Positions 1-7,927 of a DNA stretch of 7,927 nucleotides are shown here, one piece after another (the stretch's first letter is position 1; the number at the start of each line of letters is the position of its first letter). The notes beneath the pieces were generated by a model that had not been told where the DNA came from, did no database searches, and saw only the letters and a list, made by a program, of their open reading frames with translations. Made by a program: the position numbers and the translations under genes. Source of the stretch: a virus (Monodnaviria; Loebvirae; Hofneiviricota; Faserviricetes; Tubulavirales). The stretch is taken from IMG/VR virus record IMGVR_UViG_2663762849_000002; one strand, given 5' to 3'.

Positions 1-181
1 CCATCATCGCGCCGCCAACGCCCTGTAACGCGCGTGCCAGCAACAGTTCGTTCAGCGTGCCGGAAAGCGCGCAAAACAGTGAACAGAGAGTAAACAGCAC
101 GATGGCGGTAAAGAAAATATTGCGCACGCCGACTTTGTCCGCCAGCGGACCAGTAAAGCTCCCCGTCCTGTACGCCAGAAT
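1..181 (-). pseudogene. MFS transporter gene fragment; runs off the window at its 3' end and is cut off at its 5' side by an in-frame TGA at 182-184
   Basis: Minus-strand frame translates to ...[70 protein letters not shown] matches MFS motif A (G-x-L-a-D-r-x-G-r) in the TM2-TM3 loop and is followed by a hydrophobic helix. The ~60 N-terminal residues expected upstream are absent; that DNA is phage sequence. Confidence 0.5.
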
Positions 182-213
182 TCAGTGCGGATAAAACACC
201 GCTGAAATCAAAT

Positions 214-354
214 TCAGTCATAATAACGCTGAACAGTAATGCTTTGTGAGTCACAGGCGCGAATCAGTTTTATTCCGATGCCAAAACCTGAAGAAAATAA
301 AATCATTGCAGGCGCAGCAAATAAAACAAAGTTCAGAAAATCAGCGTCAGACAT
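214..354 (-). CDS. small coat-like protein, 46 aa (pVII-like by position and sequence)
   Basis: Internal ATG at 354..352 of the 214..408 ORF, 4 nt after the stop of the upstream 141-aa gene; weak AAGG SD. MSDADFLNFVLFAAPAMILFSSGFGIGIKLIR... has an acidic N-terminus, one hydrophobic helix and a basic tail, and resembles M13 pVII (MEQVADFDTIYQAMIQISVVLCFALGIIAGGQR, recalled). The C-terminal 14 aa may be junction-derived. Confidence 0.45.
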   Translation of the reverse strand: MSDADFLNFVLFAAPAMILFSSGFGIGIKLIRACDSQSITVQRYYD

Positions 355-358
355 ATCA

Positions 359-784
359 TCAGCCTTTTTCTTTACCTGCGGGCAGTGCACCCAGCGGCTG
401 ACCGTCAAAACGTTTCATGGAGCCTGAAATAAAACGATACCAGACACCATGACGTTCTGAGCCTGTCGCCCATGAGTTAACATCCACCGTGAGATAAACA
501 GGTTTGCCCTGCAAATCAGGACATGAATTAAAAAATTTAAAATCCTCCTCAGTACAGGAAAAGCGCTCATGCTCCTCACGGCGGACTTTTAATTTTCGGT
601 CTTCATACGGATAGGCAATAACAAGGGCATATTTGGGTTTAGCCTCAGGGTTATAATGAGAACCCGTGGGTTTTACCTCCTCATCATTTATGACAGTGGC
701 GTGAATAAAATATCCCGCCATTGTCATGCCTGAGGTAAAACCCTCAGGGGAAGGAAACGGAAAACTGTCGTAAATTTGATTCAT
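359..784 (-). CDS. hypothetical protein, 141 aa; candidate ssDNA-binding protein (gV analogue) by synteny only
   Basis: Strong SD GAGGAG 8 nt upstream of ATG at 784..782; lies immediately after Rep and before the small coat-like ORF, as gV does in Ff. No motif I can recognise. Confidence 0.7.
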   Translation of the reverse strand: MNQIYDSFPFPSPEGFTSGMTMAGYFIHATVINDEEVKPTGSHYNPEAKPKYALVIAYPYEDRKLKVRREEHERFSCTEEDFKFFNSCPDLQGKPVYLTVDVNSWATGSERHGVWYRFISGSMKRFDGQPLGALPAGKEKG

Positions 785-814
785 AAATCAGACTCCTCAA
801 TGTTAAAAATTCAG

Positions 815-2929
<2,115 letters not shown>

Positions 2930-2962
2930 TTAAACTAAGCCAAAAGAACAGGAGAACAAAAA

Positions 2963-3151
2963 ATGAGCAGGAAAAGTATTGGTATAAGCAACGAGAGATA
3001 TCTGAGAATAGAAAGAGCAGCCGTAGATATCACAGCCAAAACAGGAAAAGTCACAAAATGGTCGGAGATCGTGAATTATCTGATAGATGAATATTTAAAC
3101 GATGCAAAACAAGATATGATTTCGAAAAATGAAATTACACAAAAAAAATAG
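2963..3151 (+). CDS. small DNA-binding regulator, 62 aa, probably ribbon-helix-helix
   Basis: SD AGGAGA 2950-2955, 7 nt before ATG 2963. KSIGISNERYLRIERAAVDITAKTGKVTKWSEIVNYLIDEY fits a beta-strand/helix/helix RHH pattern. Divergent from Rep across the repeat array, as rstR is from rstA in CTXphi. Confidence 0.6.
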   Translation: MSRKSIGISNERYLRIERAAVDITAKTGKVTKWSEIVNYLIDEYLNDAKQDMISKNEITQKK

Positions 3152-3242
3152 TAATCACAAAACGATTTGGCGATTGCTAGAAGAGCAAAAAGTACCACCC
3201 GTGGTACAAAAGTGCAGTATTACATGATTGCTAAAAAGCAAT

Positions 3243-3398
3243 ATGCAGACAACCAGTGACTTAATTCTTGACCTGCTGATAAAGCATTTTGTTGTTGGCA
3301 GCATCACAGGCATGACAATATTCAGCCTGATAACGCTTGTCCTACCGTTGGTGATGACCATACACAACAAACTAAGTAAGGACACTGAAATCCTTTAA
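3243..3398 (+). CDS. possible small hydrophobic membrane peptide, 51 aa
   Basis: ATG 3243 to TAA 3396-3398, below the 60-aa cutoff of the ORF track. MQTTSDLILDLLIKHFVVGSITGMTIFSLITLVLPLVMTIHNKLSKDTEIL has one predicted TM helix. Weak SD; preceded by perfect palindrome gtaccac-cc-gtggtac (3192-3207) and followed by the terminator at 3432-3468. Confidence 0.25.
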   Translation: MQTTSDLILDLLIKHFVVGSITGMTIFSLITLVLPLVMTIHNKLSKDTEIL

Positions 3399-3431
3399 GG
3401 TTCAGTGCGCACAATGACGTTATGTATAAAA

Positions 3432-3468
3432 AGGCCGCTGCGGTGGAGAGTATCGCAGCGGCCTTTTC
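3432..3468. terminator. bidirectional rho-independent terminator
   Basis: Perfect 11-bp stem aggccgctgcg / cgcagcggcct with 11-nt loop, flanked by aaaaa (3427-3431) and tttt (3465-3468), so it reads as stem plus U-run on both strands. Confidence 0.75.
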
Positions 3469-3550
3469 AACATAACGCGTGTCACATTATGCGCACTGAC
3501 GTTGTGGTAGGTAAACTGAGATGCCGCGTCCTGATAATCCCGGTCGGCAC

Positions 3551-4125
<575 letters not shown>

Positions 4126-4182
4126 GTTAATCAATCTCATCATGTTATACCGTTAAGTGCTGTTTTTCAGTCATGAAGATAT

Positions 4183-4916
<734 letters not shown>

Positions 4917-4929
4917 AGTGTCCTCTGTC

Positions 4930-6144
<1,215 letters not shown>

Positions 6145-6157
6145 TTACCCCGCAAAA

Positions 6158-6517
6158 TTACTTGCCAACATTAAGCCCATTTGATTTAAATAAATCATAA
6201 ACCAATCGATACACTCTATCCTTATAAAGATATATGTATGAAATAAATTGAACATGGAGGATGATATTAAAGCAGTACTGAATATTTAAAGGCAGGTAAC
6301 TGAATGCAACTACAATAACATCGAGTTTATTAACATCGGAGATTTGACGAATAATAAAATTGACGGCAGATACAAGAGCATAATATGAAGTGTAGCAAAG
6401 ACCAAGATAAGAAAGGAGCTTAGCCCATGCAACAGCTTTATCACCGATAACTCCTGCAATGAAACGTAGTGATTTTAAAACAACATCAACAAAAAAAGCA
6501 CCTAAAATGGCCCACAT
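6158..6517 (-). CDS. pVI-like minor coat protein, 119 aa
   Basis: Hydrophobic multi-helix protein between pIII and pI, the position and size of Ff pVI (112 aa). Start ATG overlaps the pIII stop (TGATG), suggesting translational coupling. Sequence similarity to M13 pVI is weak. Confidence 0.7.
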   Translation of the reverse strand: MWAILGAFFVDVVLKSLRFIAGVIGDKAVAWAKLLSYLGLCYTSYYALVSAVNFIIRQISDVNKLDVIVVAFSYLPLNIQYCFNIILHVQFISYIYLYKDRVYRLVYDLFKSNGLNVGK

Positions 6518-7794
6518 CAGAGTTTTACCTCACGTTCAAATAATGTACGGCGAGAAATAACAAAAACGCGTAACATGGTTATCATATAAATAGCATATTC
6601 AAGAACAGAACGAACATAATCGTCATAAGCTTTTGCAAAATGGCTTGTATCAATCTTGAAATTAATCGCGCCAATCAACGGAAGATTAAAGCTAAACTGT
6701 AAAGTAAAAGGAAGAGCAGTTCCATTATTTGTATTTACCAGTTTGTCAATATTAACTGTAAGCCAATTGTTATTATCATGACTCTCACTTCCCTGTCCTG
6801 GCAAATAATGCGAAAGCTCCCCTAAAGGGAAATCCCCATCAGGCAAAGAAGAAGCTATATTCTGACTAATATCTTTAATACCATTGTCCAGTGAATTTAA
6901 TGCATTATTCATATCAGCCTGAGAAACAGAAAAAGCATTATTTAAATCATTCACTGACACCCATATTGTTTTTAACCAGCCCAAAATACCATCAAGCCAG
7001 CCATTGTCATCGCCGGATGAGCCACCGGATCCTGAACCTGAACTACCGCTACCGGATGAACCGCCGGAGCCCGAGCCGGAGCCACCGCTACCGGATGAAC
7101 CACCGGAGCCAGAACCTGAACCACCACCGGAACTGCCGCCGCCTGGGTTACCACCACCGGAACTGCCACCACCTGAGCTACCGCCATCCTCCTTACCATC
7201 GGAGAATGCAGGATCTACAGCAACTGGTTTCCAGTCGGCAGTACAAACTGTATCATCATCGGGATTACAAATAAGAGGATTACCGGTTGCCTCATAAATA
7301 CACCCCTGCACATTAACATAACGGGTCCCGTCATCACCTTTATAAACATCAGAAAAAGTCATACCATCAAGAACCGGACGAGAAAGACAAATCTCGTCAG
7401 TTGGCGGCTTATTATATTCAGGTGTCAAATCCCCCTCACCACCCTGAAAAGCAAGGGAGCAGGCTGTCCACTTTTGCTTGTCTGAATCCCAGACTTTATA
7501 TGCTGACCACCGGGCACGGACAAAAGACCCGACAGTCGAAGGTGCATTAACAGGCGTTGAAAGTGGCACACCACAATAATGAATTATTCCGGAACATGCG
7601 TCATAACTGCCCGAACCACAGAAAAGATGACCGGACGCCCTGGCTAATTTAATCGACGTCCCCGCGTCCGAATAATCTGTCCTGCAGGATGAATGGCCTG
7701 CACACTGAACAAGTGCATCCGGATTTTCTTTCTCTTCAGCGAAAGAAAACGAGGAAAAGAACAAAAACAGAAGCGGAATAATAAAGTGAATCAA
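6517..7794 (-). CDS. pIII-like adsorption/attachment protein
   Basis: Signal peptide (M)IHFIIPLLFLFFSSFSFA, Cys-rich N-terminal domains, long Gly/Ser linker, C-terminal membrane anchor. The frame is open to GTG 7803 but the AGGAG SD at 7807..7803 overlaps that codon, so TTG 7794..7792 (8-nt spacer) is taken as the start. Confidence 0.85.
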   Translation of the reverse strand: MIHFIIPLLFLFFSSFSFAEEKENPDALVQCAGHSSCRTDYSDAGTSIKLARASGHLFCGSGSYDACSGIIHYCGVPLSTPVNAPSTVGSFVRARWSAYKVWDSDKQKWTACSLAFQGGEGDLTPEYNKPPTDEICLSRPVLDGMTFSDVYKGDDGTRYVNVQGCIYEATGNPLICNPDDDTVCTADWKPVAVDPAFSDGKEDGGSSGGGSSGGGNPGGGSSGGGSGSGSGGSSGSGGSGSGSGGSSGSGSSGSGSGGSSGDDNGWLDGILGWLKTIWVSVNDLNNAFSVSQADMNNALNSLDNGIKDISQNIASSLPDGDFPLGELSHYLPGQGSESHDNNNWLTVNIDKLVNTNNGTALPFTLQFSFNLPLIGAINFKIDTSHFAKAYDDYVRSVLEYAIYMITMLRVFVISRRTLFEREVKL

Positions 7795-7814
7795 ACAAAA
7801 CACTCCTGGTATGA

Positions 7815-7839
7815 TTAAAAAAGCGCCCCGGAGGGCGCT
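7815..7839 (-). terminator. rho-independent terminator between the coat-like gene and pIII
   Basis: On the minus strand: 7-bp stem AGCGCCC / GGGCGCU with a 4-nt loop, then UUUUUUAAUCAU. Same position as the terminator after gene VIII in Ff phages. Confidence 0.7.
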
Positions 7840-7854
7840 GTCATTAAATAACTA

Positions 7855-7927
7855 TCAGGTTGCGCGGGAAAGGAAGCCTTTAATGATACCGATACCCAGA
7901 CGGGCAGCGAGTGAAACACCAAGAACG
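7855..7927 (-). CDS. major-coat-like protein (pVIII-like), C-terminal 23 codons plus stop; 5' end outside window
   Basis: Minus frame gives ...VLGVSLAARLGIGIIKGFLSRAT*, a hydrophobic helix with a short basic tail, comparable to the M13 pVIII C-terminus (...IGIKLFKKFTSKAS, recalled); sits directly upstream of the terminator and pIII. Confidence 0.5.
   Translation of the reverse strand, partial: VLGVSLAARLGIGIIKGFLSRAT

Follow-up and report, generated by a model that had tools for sequence, protein, structure and literature searches.

A filamentous phage of Escherichia coli with a double-dif attP and a one-off, non-specific join to mdtD at a contig end

RESULTS AND DISCUSSION

An inovirus contig with a short mdtD tail

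The window, by which we mean the whole stretch of 7,927 nucleotides analysed here, was traced by an exact look-up of its Zot protein to the fragmented draft assembly GCA_000936105.1, in which it makes up the entire contig CCBY01000495.1. Exact look-ups of gIII, Zot, g5, the pVIII homologues and the secretin deletion product described below returned this contig alone from that assembly. An inovirus fills bases 147-7927, with 98-99% identity to a filamentous prophage present in a few E. coli genomes (about 23 of the 5426 complete ones); megablast against the phage collection gave no near-identical DNA match. Bases 1-146 match E. coli mdtD at 145 of 146 positions and encode MdtD residues 68-115, and because the window is the whole contig, these 146 bp are the only host DNA present. 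The window spans the phage circle except for 289 bp, and its right end, position 7927, corresponds to position 12003 of the closest complete relative, the prophage of E. coli 100416 (L001), inside the pVIII-like gene. The features are, from left to right:

1..146, minus strand: mdtD fragment comprising base 3 of codon 67 and codons 68-115; cut off by the contig end
146..147, no strand: true host/phage breakpoint (three-way alignment; blastn against L001 and L002)
147..221, minus strand: initial 25 codons of a phage gene for 56 aa (g9 position), joined to mdtD out of frame; 23/23 complete phage-bearing genomes have the gene intact
179..218, plus strand: two aattcagt copies (179-186 and 211-218) and the stop at 182-184 (minus strand), inside phage DNA
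214..354, minus strand: 46-aa gene (g7 position); annotated in relatives, no family match
359..784, minus strand: 141-aa gene in the g5 position (phrog_30648, E = 1.6e-94), a presumed single-stranded DNA-binding protein by position only
815..2815, minus strand: replication endonuclease of the HUH type, Phage_GPA (PF05840, E = 1.7e-48; phrog_91)
2963..3151, plus strand: 62-aa small protein, divergently transcribed, in the regulator position (phrog_2503; annotated in relatives)
about 3404..3497, no strand: canonical attP, a GC-rich stem-loop between two inverted dif-like sites (sequence; fold; crossover mapping)
3551..4143, minus strand: secretin (g4) remnant; the reference gene is a PF00263 secretin
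4182..4916, no strand: 339-bp unit, a tandem duplicate between the secretin remnant and zot (sequence)
4930..6141, minus strand: Zot / pI-like assembly ATPase (PF05707)
6158..6517, minus strand: 119-aa gene in the g6 position (weak phrog_1944 match; position)
6517..7803, minus strand: pIII-like attachment protein with a Gly/Ser-rich linker (PF05357 Phage_Coat_A; phrog_4150, phrog_8482)
7855..7926, minus strand: last 23 codons and stop of an 80-aa pVIII-like major coat gene; the contig ends here

The core modules of an inovirus are thus in place: Phage_GPA, Zot and Phage_Coat_A in the window, and the secretin in its relatives. In E. coli 100416 the genes run Rep, 141-aa, 46-aa, 56-aa, 80-aa pVIII-like, pIII, pVI, Zot and secretin; this order, II-V-(46 aa)-(56 aa)-VIII-III-VI-I-IV, is that of M13. 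The Rep protein shares 29-31% identity with those of fs2 and VFJ and with RstA of CTXphi, to which it is distantly related. A pVIII-like gene at the far right, as proposed in a reading of the letters that preceded this analysis (below, the sequence-only reading), is indeed there, in partial form. The linker of the pIII-like protein (window 6900-7200) is length-variable, the protein having 428 aa here when counted from its first start codon (425 as called) and 451 in 100416. The 339-bp repeat units are 96% alike, carry plus-strand ORFs of 93 aa and vary in copy number among relatives.

The host tail belongs to MdtD by its identity to mdtD and by MFS motif A, between TM2 and TM3. Its reading frame and motif A are those of the MFS transporter MdtD of the E. 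coli mdtABCD-baeSR locus, whereas the window holds codons 67-115 only, and with one substitution. This sole mismatch in the tail is a C-to-A change at position 85 that results in Gly88Cys, an allele found in 0 of 5329 complete E. coli genomes.

Position and sequence of the join

Three-way alignment of the window, mdtD and the phage, together with blastn against L001 and L002, puts the host/phage breakpoint at 146|147. The host parent reads ...GTCCGCCAGC|CAGCC at the break, the phage parent ...AAAGAAC|GGACCAG, and the window ...GTCCGCCAGC|GGACCAG. The overlap is 1 bp, C146 being the sole base common to the mdtD and phage parents. mdtD is disrupted between W67 and L68, within motif A, so that the sequence-only reading was right that a phage-to-MFS join exists and that it falls at this motif. 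It had set the junction at the TGA at 182-184, which is 36 bp from the true break. Position 147 corresponds to L001 12293, and bases 147-184 are already phage, identical to L001 from about 12294 on; this TGA (TCA on the plus strand) is just where the frame first meets a stop, after 36 bp of phage DNA. Alignment of the flank to an intact mdtD, the check proposed at the time, yielded the exact breakpoint, and the frameshift that had been named as the alternative does not apply: the join is a true sequence discontinuity.

The 8-mer aattcagt had been read as a direct repeat on either side of the junction. Its copies lie at 179-186, 211-218 (not 210-217) and 808-815; all three are phage-side and occur in the dif-integrated relatives as well. 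They are therefore not a target duplication. An 8-mer direct repeat within 60 bp arises in 14% of shuffles of bases 1-260. At the 146|147 join itself we found neither a target duplication nor a dif-like sequence at either parent site. No transposase is encoded in the window, and aattcagt does not flank the join in the manner of a transposition-type insertion; the element's far end lies outside the contig. The P2 gene A ori nick sequence, sought as a possible Rep nick site at the break, had no match there. A template switch through the 9/10 likeness between host 136-145 (TGTCCGCCAG) and phage 169-178 (TGTACGCCAG) was also considered and rejected, as it would delete bases 146-178, which are present.

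The join is not a recurrent one. The 801 bp spanning the phage break are uninterrupted in 23/23 complete phage-bearing genomes, and the break is therefore not a recurrent phage end. The 32-nt junction sequence is absent from genome, metagenome and viral contig collections, the join is spanned in none of the 5426 complete E. coli genomes, and the predicted 153-aa g9-mdtD fusion protein is matched among 5.8 billion proteins only by frameshifted mdtD alleles.

These results bear on site-specific integration, either through a second, unusual attP in the 56-aa gene or by Rep joining at its nick site, with mdtD as the target. The family does have alternative integration modules, as the IS110 variant between ybiB and hcxB attests (see the last section). 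The window, by comparison, has no recombinase; neither parent site has a dif-like or repeated motif, and the P2 ori nick sequence has no match; and the junction is seen once only, at a place intact in every complete phage-bearing genome. We regard this mechanism as exceedingly improbable, and it is very improbable that the mdtD join represents a new attP. The mdtD tail is not a prophage boundary; it is a non-specific one-off.

A canonical attP and residence of relatives at dif

The phage has its attachment site elsewhere. The canonical attP, at about 3404-3497, is intact, with the dif-like sites AGTGCGCACAATGACGTTATGTATAAA and the complement of TTTTCAACATAACGCGTGTCACATTATGCGCACT. They were located by eye and by a best-match scan and are more diverged than E. 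coli dif, which itself, with up to 3 mismatches allowed, has no match in the window. Folded as single-stranded DNA, the attP region reaches -40.9 kcal/mol (z = -9.8). The attL/attR crossover of L001 maps to window positions 3484-3496; its left border (attL) regenerates dif with a 27/28 match, and its right border is a hybrid site. An unusual attP position, as had been suggested, is thus ruled out: the site is in its canonical place, and the gene broken at the join is whole in 23/23 genomes.

In E. coli 100416 two phage copies stand in tandem, with the ydeQRST fimbrial genes on one side and hipA on the other. Strain 600029 carries a single copy at the same dif locus, and E300010 also carries the phage there. 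Residence at dif was observed in relatives only, namely in L001, L005 and L006, between ydeT and hipA. The phage normally integrates at dif, in the CTXphi mode of XerCD-mediated integration. Its attP is uninterrupted in the window, which therefore shows a permutation of the replicative form or of a tandem junction. The mdtD join, in turn, is not an attP x dif product: 146|147 is 3.3 kb away from attP and interrupts both a phage gene and mdtD.

The likeness to the CTXphi-type XerCD/dif phages extends to the two inverted dif-like sites, the forked hairpin and the relatives' residence at dif, often in tandem; the difference is that the mdtD join here lies away from attP and lacks a dif-like target. 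YpfPhi/CUS-1 and the UPphi phages of Enterobacterales also use XerCD/dif integration. Dif-integrated tandem inoviruses of E. coli (UPphi) have been described whose copies could not be resolved in short-read assemblies (PMC7307601), and the organisation of UPphi, as described, resembles that of the present phage (PMC7307601). ECONIH2, a UPphi host, is absent from the E. coli genomes that match this phage.

Secretin deletion and heterogeneous tandem arrays

In the window, 906 bp are missing from inside the secretin gene; this deletion, with no more than 2 bp of microhomology, brings the final 136 nt of the gene up against its 5' part, of which the first 152 nt occur in three copies with a period of 145. 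The 100-aa product of this deletion is also encoded on 14 contigs that come from at least 9 other draft assemblies, whose accession prefixes are related. Since it recurs in at least 9 other assemblies, the deletion is certainly real, and the lineage therefore undergoes illegitimate recombination.

In the sister contigs L012 and L013, a deleted-secretin copy stands in tandem with an intact-secretin copy, a pair that looks like a defective and a helper copy in one array. Several sister contigs extend past the dif-side (attL) phage border. Because the sister contigs pair deleted with intact copies and reach beyond attL, the lineage lives as heterogeneous tandem arrays at dif, an arrangement beyond the resolution of short reads. 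The earlier suggestion of a tandem or truncated copy therefore stands, in that the window is truncated in a small structural gene and circularly permuted and the sister contigs show such arrays. The g9 region, broken in the window, is uninterrupted in L012-L014.

Both the secretin deletion, beside an intact helper, and the mdtD join resemble the deletion variants of Ff phages (miniphage-like) in being joins with 0-2 bp of microhomology. Classical Ff/M13 events concentrate in the origin, at the gene II nick site. Here, unlike in the Ff cases, the break lies within a coding gene with no recognisable origin motif, and the join to host DNA is putative.

Signatures at the contig ends

The contig halts 146 bp into a single-copy host gene, and its two ends have a common property. 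A85 is placed exactly 85 nt from the left end. Exactly as far from the right end is 7843, the last position at which the window differs from every complete-genome phage reference. In the sister contig L018 a private mismatch is also found 85 nt from the end. A7843 and the same end point are shared with CDRQ01000495.1 (L021), a contig that also bears the number 495 but belongs to a different assembly. Within 100 nt of an end, the sister contigs have private mismatches at 7.4 times the density of their interiors (7/1334 against 45/63406; Fisher p = 9e-5); such terminal clustering is seen at 85 and 7843 in the window and in L015, L017, L018 and L020. Contig ends in the sister set are unreliable. 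Moreover, contig numbers in the sister assemblies run up to 2676, which indicates that these assemblies are poor or tangled.

The 85-nt spacing would be the mark of an assembly graph of the de Bruijn type built with k = 85, whose contigs run on for k-1 bases past the base that separates two paths. If so, wild-type mdtD k-mers should also be in the data. The window contains exact internal repeats longer than 85 nt; the contig is therefore a resolved path through a tangle rather than a simple node.

Origin of the mdtD tail

We infer that the join is technical rather than present in cells, and we assign a probability of roughly 0.5 to the tail being a spurious or low-coverage join at the end of a contig. 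On this reading a Xer/dif filamentous phage came out of assembly circularly or tandemly permuted, its source being a heterogeneous tandem array or the replicative form; the 146-base mdtD join at the contig end would then not represent the main chromosome, and the tail would most likely be a chimeric or low-coverage path at a frayed contig end in a tangled short-read graph. An artefact is favoured because the contig stops 146 bp into mdtD and 289 bp short of the phage circle, because the join has a 1-bp overlap with neither target duplication nor dif-like sequence, and because the canonical attP is intact with relatives residing at dif. It is favoured further since the break cuts a structural gene that is intact in 23/23 genomes and in L012-L014, since Gly88Cys in the tail is private and coincides with the 85-nt end signature and the enrichment of end mismatches, and since the join is found nowhere else while the sister assemblies are poor or tangled. 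The tail resembles the chimeric or frayed de Bruijn contig ends of multicopy elements in being a read-sized foreign stretch at a contig end with a private substitution.

Against an artefact, reads must cross the join before a de Bruijn assembler can build it. Were k 85 and the reads 100 nt long, about 10 or more reads with independent starts would have to carry both the join and A85, so that one chimeric library molecule would be insufficient. In addition, the lineage has another join with near-zero microhomology, the 906-bp secretin deletion, that is certainly real. Real illegitimate recombination, taken overall, is a serious contender, somewhat short of an even chance.

One form that it could take is a real secondary molecule, produced by non-Xer, RecA-independent recombination between replicating phage DNA and a segment of mdtD, with intact mdtD coexisting; the molecule might be carried in a subpopulation, as a hybrid replicative form or as one copy of an array. 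The contig could not exist without junction-crossing reads, and from the 85-nt signature at its left end it follows that the data also contain a second mdtD allele, both of which suit such a molecule, as does the record of other real illegitimate events in the lineage (the secretin deletion and the 145-bp triplication). The other phage ORFs are intact and their differences from L001 mostly synonymous (27 synonymous to 9 non-synonymous); the lesions are thus recent, again as a secondary molecule would have it, and this also tells against a pure artefact. A secondary molecule demands, however, an extra private substitution 61 bp from a recent junction, its join has never been seen in any other sample, and a hybrid without the C-terminus of g9 and part of g8 would be defective. 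We hold it to be unlikely, though deserving of some weight.

A clonal chromosomal event is the other form, in which the only mdtD copy would be disrupted, either by insertion of linearised phage DNA or by an inversion of about 0.56 Mb between the dif prophage and mdtD. The assembled sequence, in which mdtD is cut at codon 67 and joined to phage, is what such an event would leave. Orientation constrains it. In strain 600029 the dif prophage is found at 0.25 Mb, its genes reading on the minus strand, and mdtD at 0.82 Mb, reading on the plus strand; in the window the phage genes and mdtD are both on the minus strand, and the retained part of the phage is the hipA-proximal one. A simple deletion between the dif prophage and mdtD is excluded by this comparison. 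Therefore only the inversion beside dif, an insertion of free phage DNA or a chimera can yield the join, and the relative orientation does fit an inversion or an insertion. The sequence-only reading had held that the element either inserted into mdtD or deleted part of it; deletion in its simple form falls on orientation, and the rest goes beyond what a 146-bp tail can establish.

A single-copy junction should have assembled on through baeS and baeR, yet the contig stops after 146 bp, and A85, exactly as far from its end as the right-hand variant is from the other, suggests that a wild-type path competed with it. The unique non-synonymous change in the tail also tells against a clonal insertion, as does a unique and non-specific join that falls in an essential phage gene. 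An inversion beside dif would, moreover, reverse the polarity of about 0.56 Mb near the terminus and should be deleterious. Dimer resolution at dif is directed by FtsK and KOPS, for which a polarity reversal near the terminus should be costly. Clonal disruption of mdtD is, in our judgement, unlikely.

The preferred reading of the tail, a spurious or low-coverage contig end, carries a caution: a 146-bp host tail on a draft phage contig should not be read as an insertion site or as a disrupted efflux gene. Were the join real, it would be ordinary illegitimate recombination with a local effect on mdtD only. We consider it distinctly unlikely that it is real in the sense of Xer-independent illegitimate recombination that gave either an mdtD knock-out or a hybrid replicative form with host DNA. 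If true, this would offer such phages a Xer-independent route to rearrange or mobilise host genes, and an mdtD knock-out would hit the Bae-regulated mdtABCD efflux operon. Nothing seen here lies outside known biology or known assembly behaviour.

Variants and neighbouring elements in related genomes

The useful result is the anatomy of a little-described E. coli inovirus lineage with a double-dif attP, tandem arrays at dif and an IS110 sister variant. This variant lies in E300010 between ybiB and hcxB (L004, 13420-14385) and has an IS110-family transposase directly after the Rep gene. The transposase replaces the regulator/attP module, and over most genes the variant is about 97% identical. 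It occupies a non-dif site adjoining dinG-ybiB, a location that several genomes share.

L005 (16445-18610) and L008 (6239-8327) contain a second, small element that resembles filamentous phages and has a Rep_trans (PF02486) initiator. It is found at dif, with the phage on one side and hipA on the other, or on a contig that also carries the phage, and may represent a satellite or another dif-integrating element. Finally, L007 (Logan SRR11281194, 5544-6825) has a phage copy truncated in the pVIII-like gene, of which 55 aa are left, and adjacent to an HTH regulator beside hipA; truncated copies therefore do occur within dif arrays.
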